64,000 nucleotides of DNA from an uncultured Gammaproteobacteria bacterium (GCA_964483115.1 CAYZZF010000003.1:2772-66771), one strand, 5' to 3'; numbered from the stretch's first letter, positions 2,376-30,573 are shown. Numbers and translations are program-made. Notes: generated by a model from the letters alone, not told the origin.

Positions 2376-2458
2376 CCCAGATGGCGGAATTGGCAGACGC
2401 GCTGGCTTTAGGAGCCAGTGCTCGTGAGAGCTTGAGAGTTCGACTCTCTCTCTGGGCA
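2376..2458 (+). tRNA. tRNA-Leu (anticodon TAG)
   Basis: Acceptor GCCCAGA/TCTGGGC. Anticodon stem CTGGC/GCCAG with loop TTTAGGA. Long variable arm. T-arm GAGAG-TTCGACT-CTCTC. Discriminator A. No encoded CCA. Confidence 0.75.
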
Positions 2459-2464
2459 CTAATT

Positions 2465-3292
2465 ATGGACTCTACTATTGAAAAACAAGAAGACGGGACA
2501 ATAAAACTTACTATTACCATACCTCTTATAAAAATCAAGAAGGCGAAAGAAGAGATTTTGGAAGAAATCGCAAAAGAGGCTAAGATTGCCGGTTTTAGAA
2601 AAGGCAAAGCGCCAAAAAAACTTGTTGAAAAGAAGTTAGACCAGGGAAAACTCCATGAAGAAAGCCTTAAAAAAATTCTGCCTATAGCATATTCTGAGGC
2701 GGTAAAAAAACATAATATTACTCCAATAATGAATCCTAAAATTCACGTAGAGGATCTTTCAGATGATAAAGATTGGAAATTTACTGCCTTAACGTGTGAA
2801 GCACCACAGATTGATCTTACTGAGTATAAAGACGCAATTAAAAAACTCACTGCAAAAAATAAAATTGTAATTCCTGGTAAAGAACAAACGCAAATCAAAC
2901 TTGAGGAGATAATAGATGAGCTTCTTAAAAACATTAAAGTAAAAATTCCAAAAATTATTATTGAGCAGGAAGCGCAAAAACTCCTTGCTCAAACTCTCGA
3001 TGAAATAAAAAGACTGGGTCTTACCCTTGACCAGTATCTTGCATCAACAAATAAAACTATCGAGAGCTTACAGTCAGAATACGCAACAAAGGCTGAAAAT
3101 GATATAAAGATTGAATTTGCTCTTCAAAAGATTGCAGATGAAGAAAACATAACAGTGACTAATGGCGAGATAGATGAAGCGATACAAAAAGCAAAAGATG
3201 AAACGGAACGAGAAAGATTAGAAGCGAATCGGTACCTTTTAGCAAGCATCATTCGTCAGCAAAAAACGCTTGATTTCCTTAAAAGTTTATGA
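2465..3292 (+). CDS. tig: Trigger factor (short form)
   Basis: N-terminal ribosome-binding signature GFRKGKAPKKLVEKK matches GFRPGKVPRKVV. Start moved to the ATG after the tRNA. Shorter than the canonical ~430 aa protein. Confidence 0.55.
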   Translation: MDSTIEKQEDGTIKLTITIPLIKIKKAKEEILEEIAKEAKIAGFRKGKAPKKLVEKKLDQGKLHEESLKKILPIAYSEAVKKHNITPIMNPKIHVEDLSDDKDWKFTALTCEAPQIDLTEYKDAIKKLTAKNKIVIPGKEQTQIKLEEIIDELLKNIKVKIPKIIIEQEAQKLLAQTLDEIKRLGLTLDQYLASTNKTIESLQSEYATKAENDIKIEFALQKIADEENITVTNGEIDEAIQKAKDETERERLEANRYLLASIIRQQKTLDFLKSL

Positions 3293-3298
3293 TAAGGT

Positions 3299-3964
3299 GT
3301 GCACATGAAATCTTTAAAAACAAAAACATCTAAATCAGGAACATTAGATTATATAGATCAAAATCCCATCGAGGCTTTCAAGGAAATAGGGACAGGAGCA
3401 GCGGATTCTCTTGTTAATGACGTAAGCAAACAAGGCGAAAGCGATTTGTGGGAAAAATTGCTCGGCGCAAAAGAAGACTTATCGGACAAATTTTCTGGAG
3501 AATTATCTGAAGGGCAAGAAATTAATTTCAAGAGTCTTAATAAAAAAAGAGCGGAAGAAAAAGACGATTTTGCAGATGTTGAACCTCTTATAGATTACAG
3601 AAGAGAAATTATTCAGGTAGAGCAACGGACTGGACATGAAAACACTAAAGTTATAAGAGCAAAGATTGAAGAAATACTAGTGGAGCTTAAAAAAATTGCA
3701 TCAACTTCTCAAGAAATTGCGATAGAATTCAAACAAATAGCAGTTGAGCAAAGAATAGAAAAACCAGGCGAGTATCATCTTACATTTTTCGAGTGGATGC
3801 TTTCATTAGTCCGCTCAGCTCGAGCAAAAATAGAAGATTCAAGTGCTTGGCTTTCAGTTATGGAAAGCAAAAAGACGCAGAGGACGTACTGGAATATGTT
3901 TGCAAAACACGGGACGACATTTGGACTATCAAACGAGCGAATAGTTGCTACACAAACAGGATAA
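3299..3964 (+). CDS. Hypothetical protein
   Basis: Complete 221-aa ORF, translationally coupled to tig. No recognisable motifs. Confidence 0.35.
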   Translation: MHMKSLKTKTSKSGTLDYIDQNPIEAFKEIGTGAADSLVNDVSKQGESDLWEKLLGAKEDLSDKFSGELSEGQEINFKSLNKKRAEEKDDFADVEPLIDYRREIIQVEQRTGHENTKVIRAKIEEILVELKKIASTSQEIAIEFKQIAVEQRIEKPGEYHLTFFEWMLSLVRSARAKIEDSSAWLSVMESKKTQRTYWNMFAKHGTTFGLSNERIVATQTG

Positions 3965-9730: not shown

Positions 9731-10768
9731 ATGGAAGAAGAGTTAATCCAAATTAAGAATGCGGCAGTATCGTTAATTTTGGAAGCAAAAAATCAAGAAG
9801 AACTCGAAGAAATAAAGCTTCAGTTTCTGGGAAGAAGTGGAAAGCTGACACTTGCCATAAAAGAAATCCCTAAATTACCTATTGAGAAAAGGCCTGAAAT
9901 TGGAAAACTTGCAAATGAAGTTAAGAACACAATTGAGGAAACTTTAGAAAATCAAAAATCGAAAATCAAAAATCAAAAATTAGAAGCTGCAAAGATTGAG
10001 ATTGACAGGACAGAACCTGGGATAGAACCTGAAATAGGACACATTCATCCAATGTCCCAAGTCATTTATGAAGTTGTGGATATATTTAAAACTTTGGGAT
10101 TTCAAGCAGCAGACGGGCCCGAGATAGAAACTGATTACTACAATTTTGAAGTTTTAAATATCCCCAAGGATCACCCCGCACGAGATATCCAACAGACATT
10201 GTACTTAGACACAAGAAACAGTAAGGAAACGCCCGGAGAAATATTGCTTCGAACTCAGACGTCCAACATGCAAGCAAGAATCATGGAAAAAATTAAACCT
10301 CCATTTAGAGTTATAGTCCCAGGGAAGGTATTTAGATACGAGCAGGTAGATGTTTCTCACGGATTTGAGTTTCAACAATTTGAAGGATTCGCAGTTGATG
10401 AAAATATCAGATTAACAGATTTATTTGGAACTATCGAATATTTCTTTAAGAAATTCTTTGGTGAAAAAACTAAAGTCCGCTTTGTATGCCATAACTTTCC
10501 TTTTGTAGAGCCCGGGGCTGAAGCCTATATTAACTGTAATGCTTGTGGGGGAAAAGGCTGCGTCTTCTGTAAAAATTCCAGTTGGGTAGAGATATTAGGA
10601 GCAGGAATGATACATCCTAATGTTTTAAAAAGTGTTAATATTGATCCAAATAAATATCAAGGCTTTGCCTTTGGAGTTGGTTTGTCAAGACTTGCAACTT
10701 TAAAATATCAAATGGATGATTTACGGCTTCTGACAAACCCCGACTTAAGAATATTAAATCAGTTTTAA
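9731..10768 (+). CDS. pheS: Phenylalanyl-tRNA synthetase alpha subunit
   Basis: ILLRTQTSNMQAR, FRYEQVDVSHGFEFQQFEGFAVD, and class II motif 3. Confidence 0.85.
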   Translation: MEEELIQIKNAAVSLILEAKNQEELEEIKLQFLGRSGKLTLAIKEIPKLPIEKRPEIGKLANEVKNTIEETLENQKSKIKNQKLEAAKIEIDRTEPGIEPEIGHIHPMSQVIYEVVDIFKTLGFQAADGPEIETDYYNFEVLNIPKDHPARDIQQTLYLDTRNSKETPGEILLRTQTSNMQARIMEKIKPPFRVIVPGKVFRYEQVDVSHGFEFQQFEGFAVDENIRLTDLFGTIEYFFKKFFGEKTKVRFVCHNFPFVEPGAEAYINCNACGGKGCVFCKNSSWVEILGAGMIHPNVLKSVNIDPNKYQGFAFGVGLSRLATLKYQMDDLRLLTNPDLRILNQF

Positions 10769-10787: not shown

Positions 10788-12683
10788 ATGTTGGCACCTT
10801 TATCTTGGCTTAAAGAATACGTCGATATAACTTTATCTCCAAAAGAGCTGGGAGAACGCTTAACTGAAGTTGGGCTAGGTACTGAAAAAATTACAAAAGT
10901 TGATAGTGATATAATTTTTGAACTTGAAATAACTCCAAATCGCCCGGATCTTTTATCGATAATAGGAATAGCTCGGGAAATTGCAGCGATCGAGAAAAAA
11001 AGAATTAAATTTCCAGGTGTAATCGTGACCCACCCCGAAGGTGTAATTGGAAAGCATAAGAAGATATTGCCTCTCGAAATTAAAACTGATTTTAAAATTA
11101 ACCCAAGATTTACTGGTATTATTATAGATAATGTAAAAATTGGAGAGTCTCCGAACTGGATTAAAGAAAGATTGGCGAAAATAGGACAACGACCCATCAA
11201 TAACATTGTAGATATTACTAATTATGTAATGTTTGAGCTTGGCAATCCACTTCATGCTTTCGATTATGACAAAATAAAAGGCCACGTTATGAAAGTTCAC
11301 AAGACACAGGGAGGAGAAAAGTTTAAGAGTGTCGATGAAATATCTTACCATTTGCCTAAGAACGCTGTAGTTATGTCCGATAGCGAAAGTATAATTGACC
11401 TTTGCGGAATAAAAGGAGCTTATAATAGCGGAACTTTTAAAGAAACAAAAACAATTTTTATACGAGTGCCCGTTGAAGTTGCAACTCTTATTCGAAAAAC
11501 ATCTCAGTCTTTAAATCTTCGTTCTGAGGCTTCAAGTATTTTCGAAAGAGGAGTAAATTCTGGCGGGACAATAGAAGCCTTGCAAAGATGCGTTGATTTA
11601 ATTTTAGAAATCGCAGGAGGCGAAATCGCAAGCGAAATTTATGATCTAAAAAAGGGTGATTTTTCTCCGTGGAATGTAAATTTAAATCTTCAAAGACTTA
11701 ATAAATTACTCGGAATTTCTATTGAAGAAAGGACCGTTTTGAACATTTTAAAAAGATTAAATCTTAATCCTAAAAAAATATCAAAAGATATAATCAAGGT
11801 AACTGTTCCAACCTACAGAAATGATTTAAAAATAGAGGAGGATATAGTTGAAGAAGTTTCAAGATTATACGGCTATAATAATTTTCCAAAAACATTGCCC
11901 GAAGGGAAAATACCTACGAAAACAGCACCTTACTTTAAAGATTATAGGCTTGAAGAAAGAATCAAAGGTACTCTTAAAAGCTGCGGATTTTCAGAAATTT
12001 ATACCTATAGTCTTATAAGCGATAAGGATCTCCTAAACTTTGGTATTGACCCTGATAAAGTGCTTCTAGTAGATAATCCTGTAAGCTTGGAATTTGAGTA
12101 TTTAAGACCAACGCTAAAAATAAATTTGATAAAGGCGCTTAGGGAAAATTTGCCGTATTTTGAGAAAATAAACTTATTTGAACTCGGAAAAGTCTATCTT
12201 GGGCAAAGTCTTGACAGTATAAAAGAAGACTATATGCTCTCTGGCATTTCCAATAGTAAAAATTTTTATGAAGTGAAAGGAATTTTGGAGAGATTACTTG
12301 AAGAGATCGGAGTTAAAATGGACCTGAGCAAAAATATTGAAGTGATAGGGGAGGGGATTTTGTTTGAGATTAACTTTACTGAAATTCTTGAAAAAATAAA
12401 TTTGCAAAAAAAATTTGTTCCCATACCTAAATATCCCCCGATAGTTGAAGACATCAGTCTAAAAATAAATCCAAAAATAAAATATGATGAAATTGTTAAT
12501 CTTATTAAAAAGCAAAGCGATCTTGTTACCAGTATTACTCTGATTGATGAATTTAAAGACAAAAAAACATTTAGAATAGTGTATCAGCATAAAGAACGAA
12601 ATCTTACAAATGAAGAAGTAGCAAAAATCAGGAAGAGAATAAGTAATGAGCTTAAAACCCAACTCAAAGCAGAAATTGTTTAA
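10788..12683 (+). CDS. pheT: Phenylalanyl-tRNA synthetase beta subunit (shortened)
   Basis: N-terminus MLAPLSWLKEYVDI...LTEVGLGTE and the B3/4 and B5 regions. 631 aa against about 800 canonical. Confidence 0.8.
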   Translation: MLAPLSWLKEYVDITLSPKELGERLTEVGLGTEKITKVDSDIIFELEITPNRPDLLSIIGIAREIAAIEKKRIKFPGVIVTHPEGVIGKHKKILPLEIKTDFKINPRFTGIIIDNVKIGESPNWIKERLAKIGQRPINNIVDITNYVMFELGNPLHAFDYDKIKGHVMKVHKTQGGEKFKSVDEISYHLPKNAVVMSDSESIIDLCGIKGAYNSGTFKETKTIFIRVPVEVATLIRKTSQSLNLRSEASSIFERGVNSGGTIEALQRCVDLILEIAGGEIASEIYDLKKGDFSPWNVNLNLQRLNKLLGISIEERTVLNILKRLNLNPKKISKDIIKVTVPTYRNDLKIEEDIVEEVSRLYGYNNFPKTLPEGKIPTKTAPYFKDYRLEERIKGTLKSCGFSEIYTYSLISDKDLLNFGIDPDKVLLVDNPVSLEFEYLRPTLKINLIKALRENLPYFEKINLFELGKVYLGQSLDSIKEDYMLSGISNSKNFYEVKGILERLLEEIGVKMDLSKNIEVIGEGILFEINFTEILEKINLQKKFVPIPKYPPIVEDISLKINPKIKYDEIVNLIKKQSDLVTSITLIDEFKDKKTFRIVYQHKERNLTNEEVAKIRKRISNELKTQLKAEIV

Positions 12684-12687
12684 TCCT

Positions 12688-12742
12688 CACGTGCAATCGA
12701 GATACACCCCGAAGGTGAATTTTCGGAAGGTGTAGTTTCGTG
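12688..12742. repeat. Nested hairpin element containing ACACCCCGAAGGTG; likely a bidirectional terminator between convergent pheT and the PBP gene
   Basis: CACG...CGTG outer stem, TACACC...GGTGTA middle stem and CCGAA...TTCGG inner stem. Shares a 13-mer with 16394-16408 and 11030-11045. Confidence 0.45.
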
Positions 12743-12762
12743 TAAGATTTTAAAAATGAGAA

Positions 12763-15186
12763 TTAAAGATTTGGAGTTGGTGTTGGAGTAACTTCAGGAG
12801 TTAAAGAAGGAGAAGGAGAAGGAGAAGGAGTTTGACTTGGACTAGGCTCATTTGAAGAACCACCCGATGACTCTTGGTAATCGGAAGTTTCCGTAGGCGG
12901 ATAATACTCTTGGTCAGCAGCTGAATATGTTTGCCTGAGCCAGGCATCAATTCCTTCCTGCCAACGATTTTTCCCATCGGTTGAAACAGGATCATTTTCA
13001 CGAAACACTATGTAATCTTTTGTATCATAGTCTCCGGCTTTTATCTCTGAATCGTTGGCCAGTTTTCCACTCTGACGTTTTGATAATTTTATTTTTTGAT
13101 AAATTGCACTAGGTCCTGTTGGTTCTGTTCCTTTAATAAAATATTCAGATCTCGTTGGCTGTCCTGAAACAGGCAGTCCTCCTCCTAATGCATCTATCTG
13201 CGTTGCTATAACGTCGTCTGGTTTTTGAGGAAATTCGTCAGGTTTTCCTTTTAAAACAAATGACATAATTCTATTCCAAATAGGCGATGCACCAGTAACA
13301 CCCGATGATATCGCCTGATTCATGGGGCTATTGTCATTATTTCCAACCCAAACGCCAACTACATATGAAGACGTATACCCAACTGTCCAATTATCTCTTT
13401 TTTCATCGGTTGTTCCAGTTTTAACCGAAACCGTTTTCCCCGGAATCACCAGCCAGGAATTCGGGCCAAACTCCATTTTTCTTGCATTATTATCCAAAAG
13501 TATATGGGAAATTAAAAAGGAGATTTCAGGCGAGAGAACTCTTTCTCCTTCATGCTTCTTGTTTTCAAACAGTACGTTTCCTTTACTGTCGGTTACCTTA
13601 AGAATGGCGACCGGATCCTGTTTTATCCCGCCATTTGCAAAAACTCCATAGGCTGTTACCTCAGAAAGAAGACTGGTCTCGCGCCCCCCCAAAACAAGAG
13701 ATAATCCAACATTTGCCATATTCTCAGAAGTAGGCTGCCAATTCTCTATTCCCATATTGTAGGCTTTTTGCATTACGTCTTTTATGCCAACCCGGGCAAG
13801 CATTTTAACAGCCGCGATATTTATTGAATTACCTAGCGCAAATCGCAGCTGTATTGGACCATGGTATTTTTCGTCGTAATTTATAGGAGTATAGATTGGA
13901 TTTTTTGGATCATTTGTTGGAAAATCAGTCTTAGCATCTACTATAAGAGTTGATGGAGTGTACCCTTTTTCAAACGCAACTGAATACATAATTGGTTTAA
14001 GAGATGAGCCGGGTTGGCGATCTGCCAGGGCTGCATTAAAATTTCCATCGTTTTTTGTATCAAAATAGTCTTTACTGCCAACCATAGCCAGAATTTCTCC
14101 GGTTTTTGGATCCGAAACTATCGAAGCTCCATTTCCAACATTATAACCTTTTAGCTTACCGATCTCATCTTTAACTATTTCCTCAGCTTTTTTCTCTATT
14201 GAGTAATCAAGACTTGTTGTAACTTGAAGGCCCCCGTTTTCAACGATATTCTCGCCAAACTGCTTTGCCAAAATCTGTTTTACATACATCACAAAATGTG
14301 GCGCTTTAATAGATGTGTCTTTTTGAGAAAAAGTCTTATCTTTTATTTCATTGAGTGCATCGGTTTTTTGTTCTTTGTTAATTACTTTTTCATTTACCAT
14401 TTGATTTAAGACCTCTTCGGTTCTTGTAATATAGTATTTTTTGCCAGAAAAAGGGGAGTAAGTGCTGGGAGCCTGAGGAAGACCTGCTAAAAATGCACTT
14501 TCTGCCAAATCAAGATCTTTAACTTTTTTCCCAAAATAGGATTCTGCTGCTGCCTCAACGCCAATATTTGCTCCCCCATAGGGAACATCATTTAAATACA
14601 TTTCTAGAATCTGATCTTTTGTATATTTTTTGTCTACTTGAATTGCAAGCATCAGCTCTTTAATTTTTCGAGGAATGGTTCGTTCGGGGGATAGCAGGAC
14701 ATTTTTTACCAACTGTTGAGTAATTGTGGAGCCGCCGGAAAGCTGTCTAAAGAACACGATATTCCTTATAGCTCGAAGATAACCAGTTAGAGAAAAACCT
14801 TGATTTTTGTAAAAATTTTTATCCTCAATCACAATAGTTGCATCCCGAAGAGTTTTGGGAGTGTCAGAAAGTTTTACGTAGGTTCTGTTTTGGGTTTGAT
14901 ATACTGAATAGAGCAATATACCATTTCGATCGTAAATTCTAGTTGACTGGGACAAAGGTGGTTCTATCAATTTTCCTGGAGTTGGCAATTCCCGTCCGTA
15001 CCAAAGAAAAAGCCCAAATGCTACAATAATCAACGCAATTAACCCAATAAAAGAATATTTTGCAAGGTTGCTATACAGGAAAATCTTGGAAGAATACCCC
15101 GATCTCCTTGCTCTTCTGCTTGCATAATCAACCATATCTTTTACTATACCAAATTTACGAAAACCCATCAAATATGCTATACTCAA
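12763..15186 (-). CDS. Class A penicillin-binding protein (bifunctional glycosyltransferase/transpeptidase)
   Basis: N-terminal TM helix. GT51 motifs EDKNFY and ITQQLVKN. Transpeptidase motifs SSLKP, SIN and KTGT. The Pro/Ser/Thr-rich C-terminal tail is encoded by (GGAGAA)n. Confidence 0.85.
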   Translation of the reverse strand: MSIAYLMGFRKFGIVKDMVDYASRRARRSGYSSKIFLYSNLAKYSFIGLIALIIVAFGLFLWYGRELPTPGKLIEPPLSQSTRIYDRNGILLYSVYQTQNRTYVKLSDTPKTLRDATIVIEDKNFYKNQGFSLTGYLRAIRNIVFFRQLSGGSTITQQLVKNVLLSPERTIPRKIKELMLAIQVDKKYTKDQILEMYLNDVPYGGANIGVEAAAESYFGKKVKDLDLAESAFLAGLPQAPSTYSPFSGKKYYITRTEEVLNQMVNEKVINKEQKTDALNEIKDKTFSQKDTSIKAPHFVMYVKQILAKQFGENIVENGGLQVTTSLDYSIEKKAEEIVKDEIGKLKGYNVGNGASIVSDPKTGEILAMVGSKDYFDTKNDGNFNAALADRQPGSSLKPIMYSVAFEKGYTPSTLIVDAKTDFPTNDPKNPIYTPINYDEKYHGPIQLRFALGNSINIAAVKMLARVGIKDVMQKAYNMGIENWQPTSENMANVGLSLVLGGRETSLLSEVTAYGVFANGGIKQDPVAILKVTDSKGNVLFENKKHEGERVLSPEISFLISHILLDNNARKMEFGPNSWLVIPGKTVSVKTGTTDEKRDNWTVGYTSSYVVGVWVGNNDNSPMNQAISSGVTGASPIWNRIMSFVLKGKPDEFPQKPDDVIATQIDALGGGLPVSGQPTRSEYFIKGTEPTGPSAIYQKIKLSKRQSGKLANDSEIKAGDYDTKDYIVFRENDPVSTDGKNRWQEGIDAWLRQTYSAADQEYYPPTETSDYQESSGGSSNEPSPSQTPSPSPSPSLTPEVTPTPTPNL

Positions 15187-15189
15187 TTT

Positions 15190-16377
15190 GTGGATAAAAT
15201 AGATAGAATTTTGACTCGGGGAGTTGCTAATATAATTCCAAAAAAAGACACACTAAAAAAAGCACTTCAAAGTGGTAGAAAGTTAAACATTTATTTAGGA
15301 ATTGACCCAACTTCACCAAGAATTCACTTAGGACATGCTGTTTCGCTTATAAAACTTGCAAAATTTTCTGAACTTAATCATAATGTCACTCTTCTTATCG
15401 GCGATTTTACGGCTCTTGTTAGCGACACATCAGACAAAGATTCCGAGCGGCCTATTTTGAAACCTGAAGAAATAGAAAAGAATTTTAAAACCTATAAAAA
15501 GCAAGCAGAAAAATTTTTGGATTTTTCAAAAGTCAAAATTCGTTACAATAGCGAATGGCTTTCAAAGCTAACTTTTAAAGATATTTTAAGTCTTGTTCAG
15601 AAATTCTCTCTCAATGATTTTATCACAAGAGAGCTCATAAAAAAAAGACTAACTGAAGGAACGCATGTGAGACTTGATGAAGTTTTATATCCTATTATGC
15701 AAGGTTATGATAGTTATTTTATGGATACTGATCTACAGATTGGAGGAACAGACCAAACTTTTAATATGCAGGCAGGACGAACACTGCAAAAAAGACTTCG
15801 AAACAAGAAGTCCTATATTTTAGCAACTGAATTTTTAATGGGAATAGACGGCAAAAAAATGAGTAAAACCTGGAATAATGCAATATGGATTGATGATAAC
15901 GCAGATAACATGTATGCAAAAATAATGTCAATAAGCGATGACTTGATAATTCAATATTTTACGCTGGCAACAAGGATTTCAAATGATGAAATTGAAGAAC
16001 TAAAAAAAGAGCTTGAACAAAGAAGAAACCCGATAAATGTTAAGAAAAGACTCGCGTTCGAGATTGTGAAAAATGTTCACGGAGAAAATAATGCAAAAAT
16101 CGCCCAGAAACATTTTGAAAAAACCGTGCAAAAACAGGAATTGCCAACAAGTATTCCAGTATACAAATATACCGGTGATAGAAGAGATAACATAATTGAC
16201 TTATTGGTTAAAACAGAGTTTTCTCAAAGCCGCGCTGAGGCAAAAAGATTGATCAAACAAGGAGGGGTTGAGATTGATGATGGAAAAATTACAAATCCTA
16301 ACTCAGAAATAGAAATAAAAAATGGTATGATAATAAGGATAGGAAAAAGAAAATTTTTAAAAATCAGGGTACTTTAG
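15190..16377 (+). CDS. tyrS: Tyrosyl-tRNA synthetase
   Basis: HIGH motif (RIHLGH), KMSKT, and a C-terminal S4 RNA-binding domain (RAEAKRLIKQGGVEIDDGKI). Confidence 0.8.
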   Translation: MDKIDRILTRGVANIIPKKDTLKKALQSGRKLNIYLGIDPTSPRIHLGHAVSLIKLAKFSELNHNVTLLIGDFTALVSDTSDKDSERPILKPEEIEKNFKTYKKQAEKFLDFSKVKIRYNSEWLSKLTFKDILSLVQKFSLNDFITRELIKKRLTEGTHVRLDEVLYPIMQGYDSYFMDTDLQIGGTDQTFNMQAGRTLQKRLRNKKSYILATEFLMGIDGKKMSKTWNNAIWIDDNADNMYAKIMSISDDLIIQYFTLATRISNDEIEELKKELEQRRNPINVKKRLAFEIVKNVHGENNAKIAQKHFEKTVQKQELPTSIPVYKYTGDRRDNIIDLLVKTEFSQSRAEAKRLIKQGGVEIDDGKITNPNSEIEIKNGMIIRIGKRKFLKIRVL

Positions 16378-16393
16378 CAAGTGTAAACGTAAC

Positions 16394-16408
16394 ACACCCC
16401 GAAGGTGT
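16394..16408. repeat. ACACC-CCGAA-GGTGT hairpin (REP-like), followed by GGTGTAAA/GGTGAA repeats
   Basis: Same 13-mer CACCCCGAAGGTG as at 12705-12717. Lies just downstream of the tyrS stop. Confidence 0.4.
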
Positions 16409-16440
16409 AAAGGTGAAGGTGTAAACCTGTAAACGAAATA

Positions 16441-16548
16441 TGGAGGTTTTTAGAAGGCATCAATGGATTTGGAAAATTATTGTAATTATTGCATCGCTTG
16501 CTCTTATTGCGGCGTCAGTTCTTCCAGCTCTTAGTCTTCACTAAAATA
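16441..16548 (+). CDS. Possible 35-aa membrane micro-protein
   Basis: MEVFRRHQWIWKIIVIIASLALIAASVLPALSLH has a single TM helix. Preceded by AAATATGGAGG. Below the size cut-off of the ORF track. Confidence 0.2.
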
Positions 16549-16567
16549 TGAACAAGCCTGACTTGTT

Positions 16568-18640
16568 ATGAATCTTAAAACTCCTATCCGTTTGGCAGGA
16601 AATATATTCACAAGATATGCAAACCGTCTTGAAAAACTTGGTATTAAAACCATAGATGATTTTCTCTATTATTTTCCATTTCGTTATGAAGATTATTCCG
16701 TCATTTCGAAAATCAGTCAGGTGCAAAGCGGGGAAGTGGTAACGATCCAGGGAGTCGTAGTTGATATTAAAAATGAATACACCAAAAAATGGAAAAAAAT
16801 TCAGAAAGCAAAGATTGCAGATGAAACAGGAGTAATCGACGTTATATGGTTTAATCAGCCATTTATTTTAAATATAATAAGAAAGAATGATAATGTATCT
16901 CTGTCTGGAAAAATAGGTTTGCATTTAAGTAAATTTGTTCTTGAATCTCCTGATTATGAAGTTATAAATGAACAGACACAAACAATCCATACTGGAAGAT
17001 TAATCCCAATCTATAGAGAAACCAACGGTATTTCGTCTAAATGGTTACGTCGCCAAATATATAAAATCATTAGGGAAAATAAACAAAATATACTCGAATA
17101 TCTTCCTGACTCAATTAAAAAAGATAATGATTTAATGATGTTAAGTGACGCAATTGAACAAATTCACTTTCCAAAATCATTAGAAGATGCTAAAAAAGCA
17201 AGATATCGACTAGCTTTCGATGAATTATTTATTCTCCAACTAACAGCGGCGAAAAGAAGATTTGAATGGAAGAAAAGCCTTACAACCCACCCCTTTTCTA
17301 TAGCAAGCTACAAAAAAAATATTGAGGATTTTTGGAAAAAGCTTCCCTTTGAACTAACAAATGCTCAAGAAAAGGCAGTTTCTGAAATTTTTAAAGATTT
17401 AGGCACAGAGAATCCAATGAACAGACTTTTGGAAGGAGACGTAGGAAGTGGAAAAACAGTCGTTGCAAGCATTGCTATGTATCTAGCTTTCTTAAATGGT
17501 TTCCAATCGGTTCTTATGGCACCAACTGAGATTCTTGCTCAGCAACATTTTAATACTATTTCGAATCTTTTATCTCCATTTAAAGTCAAAGTCAGCCTAA
17601 AAACAGGAAGTATTAAACATAAAGTATCAAGTATAAAGACCGAAAGTAAAAAAATACTCAATACTCAATACTCAATACTCAATACTAACATTTTAGTTGG
17701 GACTCATGCTGTACTTTCTGAAAAGATCAATTTTGAACGTTTGGGACTTGTTGTAATTGATGAACAACAGCGTTTTGGCGTAGAGCAACGGGCAATAATA
17801 AGAGAGAAAGGGGGAAATCCGCACTTTCTTACAATGACTGCAACTCCAATTCCCAGAACCGTTGCTTTAATTTTGTATGGAGACCTTGATCTTTCTTTTT
17901 TGGATGAAATGCCAAAAGGCAGAAAAAAAATTAAAACATGGCTTGTCCCTTCGGAAAAAAGAGATAGTGCCTATCGATGGCTCAAGTCTCAAATTTCAAC
18001 TTTCAAATCTCAGGCTTTTATCATTTGTCCTTTTATTGAAGAATCAGAAAGCATAACTACTGTTAAAGCCGCAACAAAAGAATACGAAAGACTAAAAAAG
18101 GAAATTTTTCCAAATCTCAAACTTGCTCTTCTTCATGGAAAGCTGAAGACCAAAGAGAAAGATTTAATATTGGAAGGTTTCAAAAATAGAAAAACTGACA
18201 TACTTGTCTCAACGCCTGTGGTTGAGGTAGGAATAGATATTCCTAACGCAACAATTATGATGATCGAGGCAGCAGAGCGTTTTGGACTTGCCCAGCTCCA
18301 TCAACTGCGAGGAAGGGTTGGTAGAAGAGAAAAACAATCATATTGTCTATTATTTACAGAGTCACAGCGTGAGAAAACAATTGAAAGGCTTAAAGCGATG
18401 GAAACAATGAGTATAGGCGTAGAACTTGCAGAACTTGATTTAAAACTTCGAGGACCAGGAGAAATATATGGCACAGCCCAACACGGGATTCCAATGCTTA
18501 AAATCGCATCATTTTCAGATATTGCTCTTATAGAAAAGACAAAAAGAGAAGCAAAAAAAATATTTTCAAACATTAAAAGCTATCCAAAACTTTTGGAAAA
18601 AATAGAAAAATCCACAACAAAACAAGTCTCCCCAGATTGA
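16568..18640 (+). CDS. recG: ATP-dependent DNA helicase RecG
   Basis: Wedge/OB domain. Helicase motifs GDVGSGKT and DEQQRFGV. C-terminal ...LHGKLKTKEKD...QLHQLRGRVGR. Confidence 0.85.
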   Translation: MNLKTPIRLAGNIFTRYANRLEKLGIKTIDDFLYYFPFRYEDYSVISKISQVQSGEVVTIQGVVVDIKNEYTKKWKKIQKAKIADETGVIDVIWFNQPFILNIIRKNDNVSLSGKIGLHLSKFVLESPDYEVINEQTQTIHTGRLIPIYRETNGISSKWLRRQIYKIIRENKQNILEYLPDSIKKDNDLMMLSDAIEQIHFPKSLEDAKKARYRLAFDELFILQLTAAKRRFEWKKSLTTHPFSIASYKKNIEDFWKKLPFELTNAQEKAVSEIFKDLGTENPMNRLLEGDVGSGKTVVASIAMYLAFLNGFQSVLMAPTEILAQQHFNTISNLLSPFKVKVSLKTGSIKHKVSSIKTESKKILNTQYSILNTNILVGTHAVLSEKINFERLGLVVIDEQQRFGVEQRAIIREKGGNPHFLTMTATPIPRTVALILYGDLDLSFLDEMPKGRKKIKTWLVPSEKRDSAYRWLKSQISTFKSQAFIICPFIEESESITTVKAATKEYERLKKEIFPNLKLALLHGKLKTKEKDLILEGFKNRKTDILVSTPVVEVGIDIPNATIMMIEAAERFGLAQLHQLRGRVGRREKQSYCLLFTESQREKTIERLKAMETMSIGVELAELDLKLRGPGEIYGTAQHGIPMLKIASFSDIALIEKTKREAKKIFSNIKSYPKLLEKIEKSTTKQVSPD

Positions 18641-24572: not shown

Positions 24573-26078
24573 TTAAAAATTTCTCATAGTCACTGACGTT
24601 TGAAATGGGATAGATGCTTTTTTCTCGAAAAAATTACTTGAGGTCTTACTAGAAAGAGTAAAATTTATCCCAATTATTGGAGGGGAAACAATATTATCTT
24701 GAGAACAAGTAAAAAAACAGGAATCAACAGAAACAGAATTATTAGTATCTACGAGATTGGCTCCGTTTGATGCAATTTGGCCATTGGGAGAACGCTGAGA
24801 AGAATCTAAGCAGGAAAAGATTGTAGTTCCTCTGTCAAAAGAAGTTATTTTTACATAATTGTATTGAATTAGAGGCGGGGTTGGAGTAGGGGATGGAGCT
24901 GGAGTAGGAGATGGGGTTGGACCAGGCGTAAAAGTAGCGGTTGGTGTGGGTGTGGGGGCCGCAGGGTTTATTGAAACTCCTCCAATTGCCCAATAGCGAG
25001 AGAATGAAAATGTCCATGACATTGTTACAGAATCTGCTCCAGGTTTTGTACTAGAGGCTCCTAATTCAACGCTACTGGCTACCGTGTTCCATAATTGAGT
25101 TTGACCAGAACCAACAGTAGGAGAACTAGAACTGTAAGCTGCAAGATTATCCTCAACTACTGCTCCTGTTTTACTTACAACATTAACAGAGGGATTTTTA
25201 CTATAACCAGAGGCAGTTGTATAGTTACTAAGAGGGGCTGTTTGATCAACTCCTGACCAGCTTGTAGCTCCTCCCACAGGATAGACGTAAGTTGAAAAGT
25301 TTACTTTAATTGTAGCGGTGCCGCTTGTGGGATTAATAAGATACCACATTTCTGATTGGTCTTGATTGATATCCTTTATCCCACCTATTCTTGTAAGAGA
25401 TGCTGTTCCATAAGTTATACTAGTTATGGAAGTGGAACTTCCATAAAAGGAGACACTAACCAAGAGAAGCCTATTGCTGTTCGAACCTACTGTATGGTTC
25501 CAGCTAAGAGATTTTGCATATGAACCAGCCGTATAAGATTTTGCATCAAGAGTTGGAGAAGCAGCTGCAACAGCTTCTTTTATTGGCGATTTTTCAAACT
25601 TAGGAATTAAGTCTTCTAACTTTGAAAATAAACTTGACGTTTTTTCTTTGCCTAGGCTGACAAATCCCTGAATAAACTCAGCAATTTTCGAAAAAAAACT
25701 TTCTTTTTTGCGAATGATAATAGGTGAATAAGAAAGAGGATAACTGCAATCTGCAGTGTAGTTAACTCCGTCAGTGCTTACTCCGTCAAAGTTTTGGGCA
25801 TATTGTATCATCTTTCCCATTTGTGAAATCGCACTATTACCATTTCTTCTAACAATATCTATAGTATTTGTTTTACTTGTTCCACGAAGAGAGGAAACTA
25901 AAATAGCTGAGACAACCGCACCTACAGTAAGGATGACAAACATCACAACCAAAAGCTCGATTAAGGTGAATCCTGCTCGCCGCCGGCTCGAGTTTAAAGT
26001 TAAAAGTTTAAAGTTAAAAGTTAATAAAGAAGGGGGACTAAAATTTTTAATTTTGGATTTTAATTTTGAGTTTTGCAT
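24573..26078 (-). CDS. Large type IV pilin-like protein (501 aa) with a Pro/Thr-rich tract
   Basis: Prepilin cleavage/methylation motif RRRAG|FTLIELLVVM. PAAPTPTPTATFTPGPTPSPTPAPSPTPTPP linker. The leader peptide is encoded by AT-rich heptamer repeats. Confidence 0.6.
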   Translation of the reverse strand: MQNSKLKSKIKNFSPPSLLTFNFKLLTLNSSRRRAGFTLIELLVVMFVILTVGAVVSAILVSSLRGTSKTNTIDIVRRNGNSAISQMGKMIQYAQNFDGVSTDGVNYTADCSYPLSYSPIIIRKKESFFSKIAEFIQGFVSLGKEKTSSLFSKLEDLIPKFEKSPIKEAVAAASPTLDAKSYTAGSYAKSLSWNHTVGSNSNRLLLVSVSFYGSSTSITSITYGTASLTRIGGIKDINQDQSEMWYLINPTSGTATIKVNFSTYVYPVGGATSWSGVDQTAPLSNYTTASGYSKNPSVNVVSKTGAVVEDNLAAYSSSSPTVGSGQTQLWNTVASSVELGASSTKPGADSVTMSWTFSFSRYWAIGGVSINPAAPTPTPTATFTPGPTPSPTPAPSPTPTPPLIQYNYVKITSFDRGTTIFSCLDSSQRSPNGQIASNGANLVDTNNSVSVDSCFFTCSQDNIVSPPIIGINFTLSSKTSSNFFEKKASIPFQTSVTMRNF

Positions 26079-26093
26079 TTTAAATTTTGAATT

Positions 26094-26573
26094 TTATGGC
26101 GCTGTCACACTTGAATTATTGTTAACACAAGAAACAATTTTTATCTGGTGACAAAATGGATTTGAAACGCTTGTGCATTTGGTGTCTGACCAAGACACCA
26201 ATGCTGTTATTAATGCCCCAGTACTTGAACAGTCCATAGATTTTTGTGAAATATCAATTTCTCTTACGAAAAGATTATCAATATTTGTACCGCAGCTAAT
26301 TCCTTTCTGAGTAAGGTCTCTATTTTTATCAAGACAATAATAAGTATTATCGTAGGTTGAAAAATCTGCCCAATTAGATTGAGCAAGTTTTCTAATTATC
26401 TCTATTCCTTCCTGAGCGTATTGTGTAGCCACGTTTTGATTCTTGCTAAATTGGACATTGGTGAGAGATGACATGACAATAATTACTATTGCAGCAATTA
26501 TAACTGTGGCTGTCCCCAATGCTATCAAAACCTCAATCAATGTCTGTCCAATTTGTGAGCTGTTCTTTTTCAT
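26094..26573 (-). CDS. Type IV pilin/pseudopilin
   Basis: G|QTLIEVLIALGTATVIIAAI is a class III signal peptide. Confidence 0.6.
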   Translation of the reverse strand: MKKNSSQIGQTLIEVLIALGTATVIIAAIVIIVMSSLTNVQFSKNQNVATQYAQEGIEIIRKLAQSNWADFSTYDNTYYCLDKNRDLTQKGISCGTNIDNLFVREIDISQKSMDCSSTGALITALVSWSDTKCTSVSNPFCHQIKIVSCVNNNSSVTAP

Positions 26574-27064: not shown

Positions 27065-27527
27065 AATAATAGTTACTATTGCATCCTGTTCCGCTTCCGT
27101 CCGGAGACGTAGTTGTGCCTTGAGAATCATTGGTGTTTTCAAGACACGCGCCTAGAATATAAGTTATGCCATCATTGCTTGAGTAATAGTACATACCGCT
27201 ATTATAATAAGAACTTCCGTTGGGATCACAAGGAATTTTTTGCATATAAGTGGTGGGTGGACTTCCGGCAGTCATAGCAGATCCACAGGCAGGTAGCGAT
27301 GATGGATAGCTTCCCTCATCCGCTCTGTAAAATTCCAGTGCTGACTGTATCTGACGAAGGTCAGACTTTCTTTGACTATCTCTTGCTCTCTGCCGAACGC
27401 CAATAAAATTTACAAAAAGAATACTCGCCAAAACTCCGATAATTGCAATAACAACCAAAAGCTCAATTAGAGTGAATCCTCCGTTGAGATTTGAGATTTG
27501 AGATTTGAGATTTGAGATTTTCTTCAT
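27045..27527 (-). CDS. Type IV pilin
   Basis: GG|FTLIELLVVIAIIGVLA, then RARDSQRKSDLRQIQSALEFY. The leader carries (TGAGATT)x4 heptamer repeats. Confidence 0.7.
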   Translation of the reverse strand: MKKISNLKSQISNLNGGFTLIELLVVIAIIGVLASILFVNFIGVRQRARDSQRKSDLRQIQSALEFYRADEGSYPSSLPACGSAMTAGSPPTTYMQKIPCDPNGSSYYNSGMYYYSSNDGITYILGACLENTNDSQGTTTSPDGSGTGCNSNYYYVLTNP

Positions 27528-28138
27528 GGTGTTACATTTGAACTTGTTGCTCCATAATTACAAATATAACTCGAGGAGGATCCACAGTAAACACCGACTG
27601 GAACATTAGTACATTGTGCTCCTTGATTGCACGCCTGAGGATCTTGTGCGCCTCGCTCTAAAGATGTATAAAGATAGTATGATTGCGCTCCTGTTGTAGG
27701 AGAGGAGTAATACACGTAATTTTGTGAAGAAAGTGGATCATTGGGAACAGAATTTATGTATGGACTAAAATTAGTGGTAGAAAGAGTTGATCCCCAAACT
27801 ACACAATTTCCATCCAACCTTTTTATTCTAAAATCAGTAGCTGTACACTGAGGAGGATAATACCCAAAATCGTTGTAGTATGTCTCTAATGCCCTTTGAA
27901 TTTGCGCCAGATCTGATTTTCGCTGAGCATCTCTTGCTTTCATCAATTGCCCCACTGGGTTTATAATTGTAAACAAAAAGACTGCCATAATCCCCAGTAT
28001 CGCTATTACCAATAACAGCTCAACTAGGGTAAAACCATAAAAATTATTTTTTCTGAAAGAAAGTAGCTTAAAAAGGTTCCAAGAGCCAAAAATGGGCCGA
28101 AAGGAATTGTTGCGATTTTTAACCTCTTTTTCTTCCAC
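27524..28138 (-). CDS. Type IV pilin
   Basis: YG|FTLVELLLVIAILGIMA, then ARDAQRKSDLAQIQRALETYY. Long leader. Overlaps the 3' end of pilD, so the true start may be internal or non-ATG. Confidence 0.6.
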   Translation of the reverse strand: MEEKEVKNRNNSFRPIFGSWNLFKLLSFRKNNFYGFTLVELLLVIAILGIMAVFLFTIINPVGQLMKARDAQRKSDLAQIQRALETYYNDFGYYPPQCTATDFRIKRLDGNCVVWGSTLSTTNFSPYINSVPNDPLSSQNYVYYSSPTTGAQSYYLYTSLERGAQDPQACNQGAQCTNVPVGVYCGSSSSYICNYGATSSNVTP

Positions 28139-28818
28139 ATAATTAGTATGAGGCCAGCAACTGCTCCTGTCAAGAAGGCTATATATAAAGCTATGATAAT
28201 CTTTGGAAATCCTAGCAGCAATCCCAAAAAAAAGACAAGTTTAACATCTCCTAAACCCATCCCTCTACCTTTGGTAATAAAGTATAAAAATAAAAAGAAT
28301 AGAAACACACCAATTGAGGAGACAATATTAGATATCAAGATATTAGAATGTAAGAATATTAAGTAAAGAAAGGAGATCGCAATTGCTGGGTAAACAATTT
28401 TATCTGGGATAATGCCATATTTAAGATCGGTAAAAAAAATTACTATCAAAGAGGAAACAATAAACCAATAATACAGGGCATCAATCATATACTTGATAGT
28501 TAACACTTGATACCCAATACTTATTTGGGGTAATAGATAAACAGCCGATATAAATAAAACTGCCGTTATTAATTCGACAATGGGATAATAAACGGAGATA
28601 GAAGAGTGACAAAGCCTACATTTACCTCTTAGAAGAAAAAATGAAAGAATGGGAATCATATCAAACCAGACAAGTTTTTTTCTGCACTTGTCACAATACG
28701 ATCTTCCTTTAAAAGGGGACTCATCATTCGGAAGACGATCAATAAGAACATTTAAAAAGCTCCCTACTGCAAGACCTAGAATGAATGATAAAGAAATGAA
28801 TGATAAAGAAAACAACAC
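28024..28818 (-). CDS. pilD: Prepilin peptidase (A24 family)
   Basis: N-terminal CxxC...CxxC zinc motif (CDKCRKK...CRLCH) and polytopic peptidase_A24 helices. Confidence 0.75.
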   Translation of the reverse strand: MLFSLSFISLSFILGLAVGSFLNVLIDRLPNDESPFKGRSYCDKCRKKLVWFDMIPILSFFLLRGKCRLCHSSISVYYPIVELITAVLFISAVYLLPQISIGYQVLTIKYMIDALYYWFIVSSLIVIFFTDLKYGIIPDKIVYPAIAISFLYLIFLHSNILISNIVSSIGVFLFFLFLYFITKGRGMGLGDVKLVFFLGLLLGFPKIIIALYIAFLTGAVAGLILIMWKKKRLKIATIPFGPFLALGTFLSYFLSEKIIFMVLP

Positions 28819-28918
28819 TATTTATAGAATAGCATAAAACAATACAGTCAAAACAAAAACAGCTTAAATAATATGAATACTATAATATGAGTACTATAGT
28901 GTACTATTATATTTTTGA

Positions 28919-28977
28919 ATGTAGCGAGTCTGTTTCACCTTAGTCTGTTTCACCTTCCAAGTGAAATAGCTTCGCTA
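28919..28977. repeat. REP-like structured repeat left of the RAYT gene
   Basis: GTAGCGAG...CTTCGCTAC outer stem enclosing two GTCTGTTTCACCTT copies and a CACCTTCCAAGTGAAA hairpin. Confidence 0.5.
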
Positions 28978-28998
28978 CCTGTTACTATCTTAAGAAAC

Positions 28999-29664
28999 TT
29001 ACTCTAAAACTAGATGTTTTATTTCTTCTAATCTTCTTCCGTAATCAATATTATCCAAAAGAAATTCCTTATAATCATCTAATGTTTTGAATTGCTCAAG
29101 GATTGTATCAGCTAGAACCAAACCAGATCTTCCTGCTAAAAAATCTGGTAATGATGACCATGAATAAGATAATAAATCCTGCTCATCAACGACGGTTGAA
29201 ACAACTGGGTTCAAATGAATATACCGGGAAACATGCAATAATTGCTCATTGGATTCTATATGAGAGGATTTAAATACACCTTGAAATACAGGTCCAATTC
29301 TATTGTATTTAGTATTGAAATATTTAGTATAGCTATTCGTAAATTTACTAAGAAATGTAGAGATTCCTTTGTCTTTAGTTTGTCTTAGAAGAAAATGGAA
29401 ATGATTCGGCATAAAAACAAAAGAAATTATTTCAACAAATTTTTCGCTTTTTTCCATATCCGAAATTATTCGATTGCGTTCTTCTTGAGAAAACTTCTTA
29501 AATCTCGAAAGCCTCACAGGCGGAGAAATAAAACGGTAATAGGATAGTGTTAGAAGAGCTTGTTTATAATCATTTTTGTTTAAAAATGTCGGTTGACGCG
29601 CAACTCCACGATTAAAAATATGATAATATTCTTCATTTACTAAAGGGGTAGATCTGTAAGACAC
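28999..29664 (-). mobile_element. IS200/IS605-family Y1 (HuH) transposase, REP-associated tyrosine transposase (RAYT)-like
   Basis: YHIFNRGV, HuH motif MPNHFHFLL, catalytic-Tyr region SRYIHLNPV, and C-terminal YSWSS. Matches the TnpA_REP/RAYT pattern. Flanked by REP-like hairpins. Confidence 0.7.
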
Positions 29665-29710
29665 ATTCTAAAATTAGCAGAATATTAAGATTGTGTCAAC
29701 AGGTGACGAG

Positions 29711-29752
29711 GCTGTTTCACCTTCCAGGTGTAATAAATCAGGTGTAATAAAT
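29711..29752. repeat. REP-like repeat right of the RAYT gene
   Basis: GCTGTTTCACCTTCCAGGTG has a CACC-TTCCA-GGTG hairpin and is a near-copy of the left-flank core. Followed by a CAGGTGTAATAAAT direct repeat. Confidence 0.5.
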
Positions 29753-29939
29753 GGAATAAAGAGATTCTTGCCGAATTATCTCTAGATCAGATTTTACAAT
29801 TTCAAGAAGATTTATAAGGTCGGGCCTCGTTGACTTCTGTTCTGGACGATGAAAATAAAAAATTAAAAGATTATTTTAATAAAGTAAAACCTTCGGGGGG
29901 GGTCGTAAAACTGAAACAGAGATTTTACAACAAGTATAT

Positions 29940-30557
29940 TTATGGAGTAAAAGGCCCTTCCGACATAGTTCCGCTAACAGGATTAGTTCCTGCACCCACA
30001 GCGCTCATGCATGCTACCTGCACTAAACCTTTTGATGAATCAAAGTAAACTATACCTTGGCTTTTCGAACAAGGTGTCCCTGTACCGGTTGCTTTTAATA
30101 ATTCGTTGTTTGATTCAACTGTGGTCCAAATTGCAAATTTAGTAGGAGTAGCACTATCAACTGCATAGCAGATATTTACTTGAACATCACTTGTTAAGGT
30201 TCCACCAGCACAAGGTGTCCCCCCTGTTATGTCTGGCAAGGATACGACATTAGTTATATCCTTTGAAGCCGTTAAAACATTTTGCCAAGTACCTGGAGTA
30301 GCGGTACCGTCAACTACAGGAATAACCGAATTGTTTGAAGTTACATAATTAGACATACTCTTTCCCAGACCTTCCACAGCAGAAATTCTATTTGCGTCTC
30401 TTCCTCGAGCTAATTGTTCCACAGGGTTAATAGCTAGAAGGACAATTGCTGCAAGAACCCCTATGACCGCGATAACCACTAGAAGTTCTATCAACGTAAA
30501 ACCTTTTTTTGAAGTTAAAAGTAAAAGATTAAATAATTTCTTAAAAGAACTTTTCAT
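29940..30557 (-). CDS. Type IV pilin (candidate major pilin)
   Basis: KKG|FTLIELLVVIAVIGVLAAIV. Has its own near-consensus promoter. Lies adjacent to pilC/T/B. Confidence 0.7.
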   Translation of the reverse strand: MKSSFKKLFNLLLLTSKKGFTLIELLVVIAVIGVLAAIVLLAINPVEQLARGRDANRISAVEGLGKSMSNYVTSNNSVIPVVDGTATPGTWQNVLTASKDITNVVSLPDITGGTPCAGGTLTSDVQVNICYAVDSATPTKFAIWTTVESNNELLKATGTGTPCSKSQGIVYFDSSKGLVQVACMSAVGAGTNPVSGTMSEGPFTP

Positions 30558-30573
30558 TTTTTTGTATATATTT

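Follow-up and report, generated by a model that had tools for sequence, protein, structure and literature searches.

Why should one 13-nucleotide (nt) hairpin sequence, CACCCCGAAGGTG, recur three times within 5.4 kb of bacterial DNA, twice just after a stop codon and once inside a coding sequence? The question is raised by a 64-kb stretch deposited under an uncultured Gammaproteobacteria bacterium (assembly GCA_964483115.1, CAYZZF010000003.1:2772-66771), which we call the window and in which the three copies, termed elements A, B, and C, lie in or beside pheT and tyrS. The 13-mer is the core of a lineage-restricted, polar repeat that resembles the repetitive extragenic palindromes (REPs) of other bacteria. 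In relatives the repeat is physically linked to genes for Y1 (single-tyrosine) enzymes like the REP-associated tyrosine transposases (RAYTs); two clades of these genes, here called P and S, each have their own hairpin variant. We consider it probable that this REP-like repeat of Levybacteria is the end sequence of clade P Y1 genes, that B is a relic of such a gene, that A and C are insertions, and that the element is not a terminator. The three elements and the genes around them are as follows.

10788-12683, + strand: pheT, stop codon TAA at 12681-12683
11012-11050, + strand: element A, in frame in pheT, core at 11031-11043; 40.5 bits with the nhmmer family profile
12684-12746, + strand: element B, solo copy, core at 12705-12717; 34.2 bits with the profile
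12763-15186, − strand: gene for PBP1A (class A penicillin-binding protein), stop codon at 12763-12765, convergent with pheT
15190-16377, + strand: tyrS, stop codon TAG at 16375-16377
16378-16435, + strand: element C, between tyrS and a small open reading frame (ORF), core at 16395-16407; 36.3 bits with the profile

The three cores, all on the + strand, are the only exact matches to CACCCCGAAGGTG in the window, and allowing one mismatch added no further site in the 64 kb. In 100 shuffles that kept the dinucleotide composition, the mean was 0.01 matches and three was never reached, so a chance origin was rejected. A preliminary description of this DNA had rightly counted three copies, far above chance expectation, although it placed A (11030-11042) and C (16396-16408) each one base off. 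It had also placed B and C after stop codons and A in frame within pheT, and this is borne out: the cores of B and C start 22 nt past the pheT stop and 18 nt past the tyrS stop, respectively, and A translates as ...PGVIVTHPEGVIG..., PheT residues ~76 to 88, in the linker between the B1 and B3_4 domains. The 5-bp stem ACACC/GGTGT that it drew for B and C must be shortened. Only 4 bp, CACC/GGTG, can form in all three copies; a fifth pair, A-T, is present in C alone, the corresponding bases being A/A in B and C/T in A. The nested CACG/CGTG and CCGAA/TTCGG complements reported around the hairpin of B are present in the sequence, but the best fold of B uses another pairing, in which ACACCCCGAA pairs with the downstream TTCGG..GGTGT and not with the 13-mer's own 3′ arm.

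Likeness among A, B, and C reaches beyond the 13-mer, over ~35 to 60 nt (a repeat finder aligned 44 nt, as family D4). In each, a box (A)GGTGYAAWCG stands five bases ahead of the hairpin CACC-CCGA-AGGTG, and the hairpin is followed by TAA and more AGGTGTAA-like boxes. In B the box CGTGCAATCG precedes the core, and an extra box GAAGGTGTAG and then CGTGTAAG come after it; C consists of the box AAGTGTAAACG, the core, GGTGAAGGTGTAAA, and CTGTAAACG. Among the three copies the 13-mer is invariant and the flanks have diverged. A search of the window with the nhmmer profile (19 copies) returned A, B, and C only, plus a 5.6-bit trace at the flank of a Y1 gene at 28999-29664, and the one further site from a search for CACC-N3-7-GGTG, at 30203 within a pilin gene, is due to chance. 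The window has nine AGGTGTAA sites, of which six fall in A, C, and the flank of that Y1 gene. The pheT and PBP1A genes converge, with 79 nt between their stop codons, and B takes up most of this gap; this junction is the home locus described below, and A and C lie 1.7 and 3.7 kb from it.

By its PheT, whose closest homologue is 70% identical, the window belongs to Candidatus Levybacteria (Microgenomates, candidate phyla radiation). We scanned a genome collection, outside which the window's source genome falls, with the strict 25-nt pattern AAWCGNNNNNCACCYCGAAGGTGWA. The scan gave 8 sites in Levybacteria RIFCSPLOWO2_12_FULL_39_17, 4 in Microgenomates NC_groundwater_1156, 1 in Levyibacteriota NC_groundwater_739, 1 on a Gammaproteobacteria-labelled contig (L023), and ~20 single hits in unrelated, mostly GC-rich taxa. 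With the family profile, the Levybacteria/Microgenomates sites and L023 scored 38 to 47 bits, and the other single hits scored ≤23 bits or were unscored. A metagenome scan yielded more Levybacteria-type contigs, many of them the Rifle organism recurring in other samples. Across these collection scans the element is thus restricted to Levybacteria/Microgenomates genomes and metagenome contigs. The L023 copy (3648-3681 of CAYHUY010000011.1, contig GC content 39%) is a full-length member inside a DegT gene orthologous to that in another related contig, L014, and because of that position we take the contig to be probably a Levybacteria contig in the wrong bin.

From ~31 non-redundant copies, the consensus reads (AAAT)YCCY-AGGTGYAATCG-KAAGA-CACCYCGAAGGTG-TAATCG followed by 0 to 3 extra AGGTGTAA boxes, with conserved positions from -11 to +28 around the core and a polar element of 40 to 60 nt. 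Immediately 5′ of the hairpin these copies have AATCGKAAGA, and the canonical REP foot GT[AG]G was not found there. A, B, C, and nearly all copies in relatives stand singly and in one orientation; the inverted-pair (REPIN) layout was not encountered. Copy numbers are 3 in 64 kb and, by the strict 25-nt pattern, 8 and 4 in two related genomes, compared with tens to hundreds for REPs.

Most copies follow genes. A gene was called on the 5′ side of 16 solo intergenic copies; 13 of these copies run in the same direction as that gene, and four (B and C in the window, L038 after dnaB, and L095 after purD) start 0 to 3 nt past its stop codon. Other members lie within coding sequences or 1 to 160 nt upstream of genes. 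The robust in-gene hosts, all in sense orientation, are three: PheT, the LeuRS editing domain (L029), and a DegT-type aminotransferase (L014 and L023). These copies share one reading frame, G-V-I-x-R-H-P/L-E-G-V-I. Element orientation equals the regional gene direction in 24 of 28 cases.

The link to Y1 genes is seen at the home locus, which we defined by family searches on neighboring genes. In L003 and L004, which share the insertion in PheT with the window, a Y1 gene lies directly downstream of pheT. L004 has the exact 13-mer just upstream of this gene and a full element, AGGTGCAATCGGAAGACACCTCGAAGGTGTAATCG, 17 nt past its stop. In L020/L095, from a RIFCSPLOWO2-type genome, a full element stands on both sides of the Y1 gene, with the exact 13-mer again just upstream of it in L020, and in L010 a full element follows the gene. 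Overall, the element comes 8 to 17 nt after the Y1 stop in L004, L010, and L020 (the positional survey put three Y1-adjacent copies at 8 to 10 nt), and upstream of the gene the order is hairpin, then TTGACACCTG. A Y1 gene is thus flanked by the dispersed repeat in L004, L010, and L020; in the window no Y1 gene adjoins a member of the 13-mer family. The Y1 proteins of these four lineages, which form clade P, are 60 to 69% identical to one another and 42 to 50% identical to the window's own Y1 protein. The RIFCSPLOWO2-type genome has, by the profile, at least 11 elements and one Y1 gene among its recovered stretches, so the repeats outnumber the genes, and in ~0.8 Mb of related DNA examined there was no second copy of either Y1 gene.

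The gene order is pheT-Y1-PBP1A in L003 and L004, pheT-NUDIX-Y1-PBP1A in L010, pheT-hydrolase-Y1-PBP1A in L020/L095, and pheT-[B]-PBP1A in the window. In syntenic L100, L101, and L102 the pheT and PBP1A stop codons are 3 nt apart, overlapping, or 26 nt apart, and the junction is element-free; in L103 an unrelated 175-codon ORF fills the gap. Because the orthologous junction carries a clade P Y1 gene in four lineages and is empty in three others, B is most plausibly what remains, as a solo copy, of a clade P cassette. The elements flanking the L020 gene are direct repeats of ~30 nt, and recombination between repeats so arranged would leave a solo copy such as B.

Several further features of these cassettes deserve mention. 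The Y1 genes of L003 (3022-3669, −) and L004 (2841-3527, +) occupy the same junction in opposite orientations and are 69% identical, with PheT 93% identical, and their cassette hairpins differ (CACCCCAAGGGTG versus CACCYCGAAGGTG), which suggests that the Y1 cassette at this junction was replaced or inverted. The clade P gene of L010 (1742-2329, −) encodes 195 amino acids (aa), lacks the segment with the catalytic tyrosine (YIHLNP), and is probably inactive. In one subtype of the repeat, GGTG is followed after 7 nt by TTGACACC, a -35-like hexamer (L014 1278-1309, L046 5765-5797, L095 2281-2312, and L020 1008-1037). Besides its place upstream of Y1 genes, this subtype stands alone ahead of other genes, and it might carry an outward-facing promoter. 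Downstream of recG in L103 (15300-15345) is a variant with the L003-type hairpin, AGGTGTACCCACATACT-CACCCCAAGGGTG-TATAT. L009 has another Microgenomates repeat (2958-3020, −), in which three tandem 22-nt units (AGAGGTGATTTACCTACACCTT) adjoin a CACCTGAAAGGTG hairpin.

Filled and empty states were also found for the sites of A and C. In an alignment of 16 PheT homologues, the segment PGVI..H.EGVIG (GVIxxHxEGVIG) is present only in the window, P0003, and P0004. At the DNA level L003 and L004 have the element at the position of A, and L100 has an unoccupied variable linker. At site C, L095 has, between purD and the same small ORF, a family member that begins 1 nt past the purD stop, and in L100 to L103 the distance from the stop codon to the ATG of that ORF is 1 to 30 nt, with no element. 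The sites of A, B, and C are therefore filled in some syntenic genomes and empty in others, the pattern that insertions would produce. Upstream of YCCY-AGGTG, copies have an A-rich run plus T, and AAATCCCTAAG is already present at the empty PheT site of L100; AAAT/YCCY may be a target or cleavage context, but this is a hint from one empty site in an AT-rich genome, on which we make no claim.

The small ORF at site C (16440-16544, +), just before recG, has 34 hydrophobic codons (MEVFRRHQWIWKIIVIIASLALIAASVLPALSLH) and recurs in L095, L100, L101, L102, and L103; it is probably an unannotated small membrane protein. Several relatives (L095, L100, and L102 were compared) have a purine gene, purD or purH, between tyrS and recG that the window does not have, and element C occupies its place (window 16378-16567).

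The window does hold a Y1 gene, of clade S, flanked by a different hairpin repeat.

28921-28978, − strand: repeat downstream of the Y1 gene, an imperfect palindrome with a GTAGCGA...TCGCTAC base that encloses CACTTGGAAGGTG and two GGTGAAACAGAC
28999-29664, − strand: RAYT-like HUH/Y1 transposase gene of clade S, 221 aa, motifs NHFH, FQG, and YIHLNP
29700-29752, + strand: repeat upstream of the Y1 gene, CAGGTGA, 11 nt, CACC-TTCC-AGGTGTAAT (hairpin 29718-29730), 5 nt, AGGTGTAAT

The protein matched Pfam Y1_Tnp at 36.8 bits (cut-off, 23). Its best NCBIfam model was REP_Tyr_transpos at 49.9 bits, which is under the curated cut-off of 80 (Levybacteria Y1 proteins range from 44 to 55), and no NCBIfam IS200/IS605 model matched at an E value of <0.1. 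Alignments showed the HuH motif plus Y---NP of RAYT-class Y1 enzymes, as NHFH and YIHLNP. Against solved structures, a single-sequence search gave nothing significant, and a profile search gave ISDra2 TnpA only (E = 0.006). An AlphaFold2 model (predicted local distance difference test score, 88) has a helical C-terminal tail; a fold search with it returned on top 4ER8, the Escherichia coli RAYT with a REP hairpin (E = 4.6e-7), with IS608 and ISDra2 at ~3e-4. Orthologues 75 to 80% identical in L039 to L041 and L042 to L045 are likewise flanked by pilin and prepilin peptidase genes; the Y1 gene keeps this position within the type IV pilus operon (window 28024-31852, −) in three species. In the single comparable pair, the window and the L039 genome, Y1 is 80% identical and PheT (L100) 66%. 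Better conservation than PheT at a fixed place fits a vertically inherited gene under constraint, and both clades show low-copy, vertical inheritance, clade S in the pilus operon and clade P at pheT-PBP1A in four lineages.

The upstream repeat has the same box/hairpin/box layout as A to C on the + strand, antisense to the Y1 gene; read on the coding strand, this flank is TTACACCTG-ATTTA-TTACACCTGGAAGGTGAAACAGCCTCGTCACCTG and then TTGACA, a − strand hexamer at 29694-29699. The downstream palindrome folds as DNA at -9.7 kcal/mol (z = -3.8; 0 of 200 shuffles fold as well), and the equivalent sequences in L039 and L042 are ~31-nt inverted repeats flanking the gene. The clade S hairpin variant, CACCTTCCAGGTG, thus goes with a GTAGCGA...TCGCTAC foot, in which GTAGCGA stands at least 7 nt from the short hairpin. 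No copy of it was found elsewhere in the 64-kb window, and solo copies occur on other contigs, e.g., L099. The stem CACC/GGTG that the preliminary description saw in both the 13-mer and the RAYT flank does relate the two types, but they are distinct subfamilies with distinct partner genes. Likewise, its link between a REP family and a RAYT-like Y1 gene stands, since the element flanks Y1 genes in relatives, but the choice of partner is not supported: the window's RAYT is a paralogue of the one concerned.

We also considered whether the elements act as RNA. No intrinsic terminator, for which a GC-rich stem of ≥5 bp with a T-run after it was required, was found on the sense strand at B or C, and no T-run follows C. 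In a consensus terminator scan of the region the total number of calls equaled the shuffle expectation and included one weak antisense call at C. RNA fold energies were divided: B folds at -19.6 kcal/mol (z = -3.1), better than its shuffles, and C at -10.1 kcal/mol (z = -0.34), no better than its shuffles. With family members inside genes as well, the proposed reuse of the repeats as transcription terminators is not upheld. The stem CACC/GGTG is identical across variants, with no compensatory changes, and such an invariant stem without covariation points to sequence-specific recognition. Rfam 15 at gathering scores found three tRNAs only in the whole window and nothing at the elements; at E values up to 1, the 10900-16700 interval gave only a spurious mir-316 inside the PBP1A gene. 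A T-box or other leader RNA was rejected because the elements are on the wrong side of the genes, and CRISPR (clustered regularly interspaced short palindromic repeat) or tRNA fragments were rejected because there is no array and no tRNA match.

In the IS200/IS605 and RAYT paradigm, a Y1 enzyme acts on hairpins in single-stranded DNA, and 4ER8 provides a structural precedent. By extension, the clade P enzyme would bind the CACC/GGTG hairpin on one strand of single-stranded DNA, cut beside it, and move or copy the element to another single-stranded site. Such one-strand action would account for copies in a single orientation. Further protein-binding sites may be provided by the repeated AGGTGTAA boxes, and we speculate that these boxes and the helical C-terminal tail could form a second protein-DNA contact. 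In the window genome the clade P gene would have been lost from the pheT-PBP1A junction, leaving solo repeat B.

Several observations weigh against clade P Y1 genes as the source of the repeats. Mobilization by the Y1 enzyme is something we infer, and no clade P Y1 gene is present in the window. The window copies score 34 to 40 bits on the family profile versus 43 to 47 bits for copies in relatives; they are therefore more decayed, though the 13-mer is intact, and all three may be old, immobile relics. Copy number in relatives is low, ~4 to 12 by the strict pattern, far under that of classical REP families. That the same two sites are filled in lineages with ~68% PheT identity could reflect selective conservation rather than mobility. 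Finally, local and regional gene direction mostly agree, so a replication-strand effect cannot be separated from selection for co-transcription as the cause of the orientation bias.

Some of these points favor a host-selected cis-element, such as a 3′-untranslated-region (3′-UTR) stabilizer, a coupling or spacer signal, or a set of host-protein sites, with the Y1 link secondary. REPs in other bacteria stabilize upstream mRNA (reviewed in PMC3733652), which we counted in its favor, as we did the strong co-orientation with the upstream gene, the copies abutting stop codons, the two sites filled at ~68% PheT identity, and the constancy of the 13-mer amid diverged flanks in the window copies. We nevertheless regard this explanation as unlikely. 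The hairpin is weak, is the same CACC/GGTG everywhere without covariation, and has no Rfam family; most syntenic relatives lack the element at these sites and have nothing in its stead; and insertion explains sense copies in three unrelated coding sequences better than a role in the UTR does. The preliminary description had instead joined A to C and the RAYT-flanking hairpins in one REP family, mobilized by the RAYT at 28999-29664 and reused as terminators. The two types do share the stem, have AGGTGTAAT boxes 3′ of the hairpin, and between them hold two-thirds of the AGGTGTAA sites; TTCCAGGTGTAAT is identical in copy A and the Y1 flank; and for the terminator part, B and C follow stops and B folds well as RNA. 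As a whole this account appears improbable to us, since the window's Y1 belongs to a different clade, 42 to 50% identical to the Y1 carrying the exact element, its flanks have another loop and spacer plus a GTAGCGA foot, have no dispersed copies in the window, and earn only 5.6 bits from the family profile, and members lie inside genes and directly before start codons.

We see a similarly small chance that the repeats are ends or miniature derivatives of an ordinary, active IS200/IS605-type insertion sequence and not of a domesticated RAYT-type gene. Here the L020 Y1 gene, between two composite elements in direct orientation that recall left- and right-end hairpins, the opposed, 69% identical cassettes of L003 and L004 with different hairpins, which suggest turnover at the site, and the many homologues on very short contigs, where repeats tend to end up, are set against the tyrosine motif (YIHLNP, hence Y---NP and not Y---Q), the absence of an NCBIfam IS200/IS605 match at an E value of <0.1, the precedence of 4ER8 over IS608 and ISDra2, and two Y1 clades at conserved syntenic loci without a second copy in ~0.8 Mb. 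The idea that in these very small genomes both Y1 lineages, one of them fixed in the type IV pilus/competence operon and better conserved than PheT, are domesticated single-stranded-DNA enzymes with a host function rather than transposase relics, and that the polar repeats at gene ends are their recognition tags, strikes us as very unlikely; were it true, the repeats might serve the processing of incoming or replicating single-stranded DNA or mark gene 3′ ends. One Y1 paralogue is embedded in a type IV pilus operon, and DNA uptake sequences, read by the pilus/competence machinery, also lie elsewhere after genes and in permissive reading frames. Those sequences have a density of ~1 per kb, far above the 3 per 64 kb here or the ~10 per ~1-Mb genome in relatives, and the single orientation and composite length of 40 to 60 nt also speak against an uptake signal, to which we give almost no credence.

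Taken as clade P end sequences, the repeats are of a known kind, that of REP/RAYT systems, terminal inverted repeat (TIR)-associated tyrosine transposases (TIRYTs), and intragenic REPs. Most known REP/RAYT systems are from Proteobacteria, Cyanobacteria, and Bacteroidetes, and to our knowledge what RAYT enzymes do for their hosts is still unsettled; we found no description of REP or RAYT elements in Patescibacteria in the searchable literature. As with E. coli TnpA-REP (4ER8) and Pseudomonas REPINs, a low-copy Y1 HUH enzyme with Y---NP is encoded by a gene flanked by short hairpin repeats; solo copies of these repeats are more numerous and lie mostly just past gene ends, with an occasional one in frame within a gene; repeat variants are lineage specific, the gene is vertical at a fixed locus, and the predicted fold is closest to 4ER8. 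Unlike those systems, the Levybacteria repeat has no GT[AG]G foot, a stem of 4 to 5 bp, AGGTGTAA(TCG) direct-repeat boxes on both sides of the hairpin, single polar copies instead of REPIN pairs, and a low copy number, and its Y1, at 50 to 55 bits, falls under the NCBIfam RAYT cut-off of 80 in a candidate-phylum host with a small genome. Similarities to IS200/IS605 elements and to palindrome-associated transposable elements (PATEs) are the Y1 HUH enzyme, subterminal hairpins, strand-specific elements, plausibly seamless excision, and the direct orientation of the L020 flanking elements; in contrast to IS200/IS605, the motif is not Y---Q, and there is no tnpB, no set of multicopy identical cassettes, and a conserved syntenic location. 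Rickettsia palindromic elements (RPEs) and intragenic REPs similarly place a short repeat in one frame in permissive loops of essential proteins; they belong to another sequence family and host, and here a candidate mobilizing enzyme is linked to the repeat.

The closest enzyme class appears to be subclass 2.1 of Quentin et al. (2018), whose second signature is NH[YF]H, FQ, and Y[IV]HLNP with a median length of 238 aa; Y---NP is the class 2/RAYT signature, and Y---Q is that of IS200 transposases (PMC6006769, Table 1). Those authors considered subclass 2.1 probably the same as the TIRYT/TIRtron group of Di Nocera et al. 2013 (PMC3733652) and reported no REP-like hairpins near subclass 2.1 genes (PMC6006769), and some TIRs form moderately abundant dispersed families (Di Nocera et al., PMC3733652). 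The Levybacteria Y1 proteins, with NHFH, FQG, YIHLNP, lengths of 215 to 228 aa, a helical C-terminal tail, and ~31-nt inverted repeats flanking the clade S gene in L039 and L042, agree with subclass 2.1/TIRYT in motif, length, and inverted repeats, an assignment by motif inspection and not by phylogeny. They depart from it in that hairpin repeats flank the genes and disperse and in that GGGGWSAS, common in TIRYT repeats, is absent. The Levybacteria repeats are set apart from the known systems by the missing GTAG, by a minimal hairpin between direct-repeat boxes, and by standing as single polar copies; the host phylum, the two fixed Y1 loci, and the pairing of hairpin repeats with an enzyme like those of subclass 2.1 are further differences.

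Here a member of the candidate phyla radiation keeps two RAYT-like paralogues, both at fixed loci and both with a hairpin repeat of their own. The pheS-pheT-PBP1A-tyrS-recG neighborhood, with its filled, solo, and empty states, makes gain, loss, and target choice easy to study. Such repeats can be mistaken for terminators or RNA motifs, and they probably break metagenome assemblies, since many Y1 homologues lie on contigs of 1 to 3 kb.

Other features of the window are recorded here for completeness. Heptanucleotide tandem repeats occur at 27484-27520, 17653-17686, 57387-57418, 9948-9980, 26042-26095, and 36833-36870. The perfect heptamer arrays are TTGAGAT (5.3 units), AATACTC (4.9), and ATTTGTG (4.6), and AAAATCA (4.7) is near perfect; from their coordinates, AATACTC is within recG and AAAATCA within pheS. 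As the units are seven bases long, slippage can shift the reading frame. A perfect hexamer array, AGAAGG (4.3 units, 12805-12830), at the 3′ end of the PBP1A gene (−) corresponds to a low-complexity C-terminal tail. A tRNA-Leu gene (2375-2459) overlaps the start of a 303-codon ORF on the same strand (2381-3292), the true start of which is probably further downstream.

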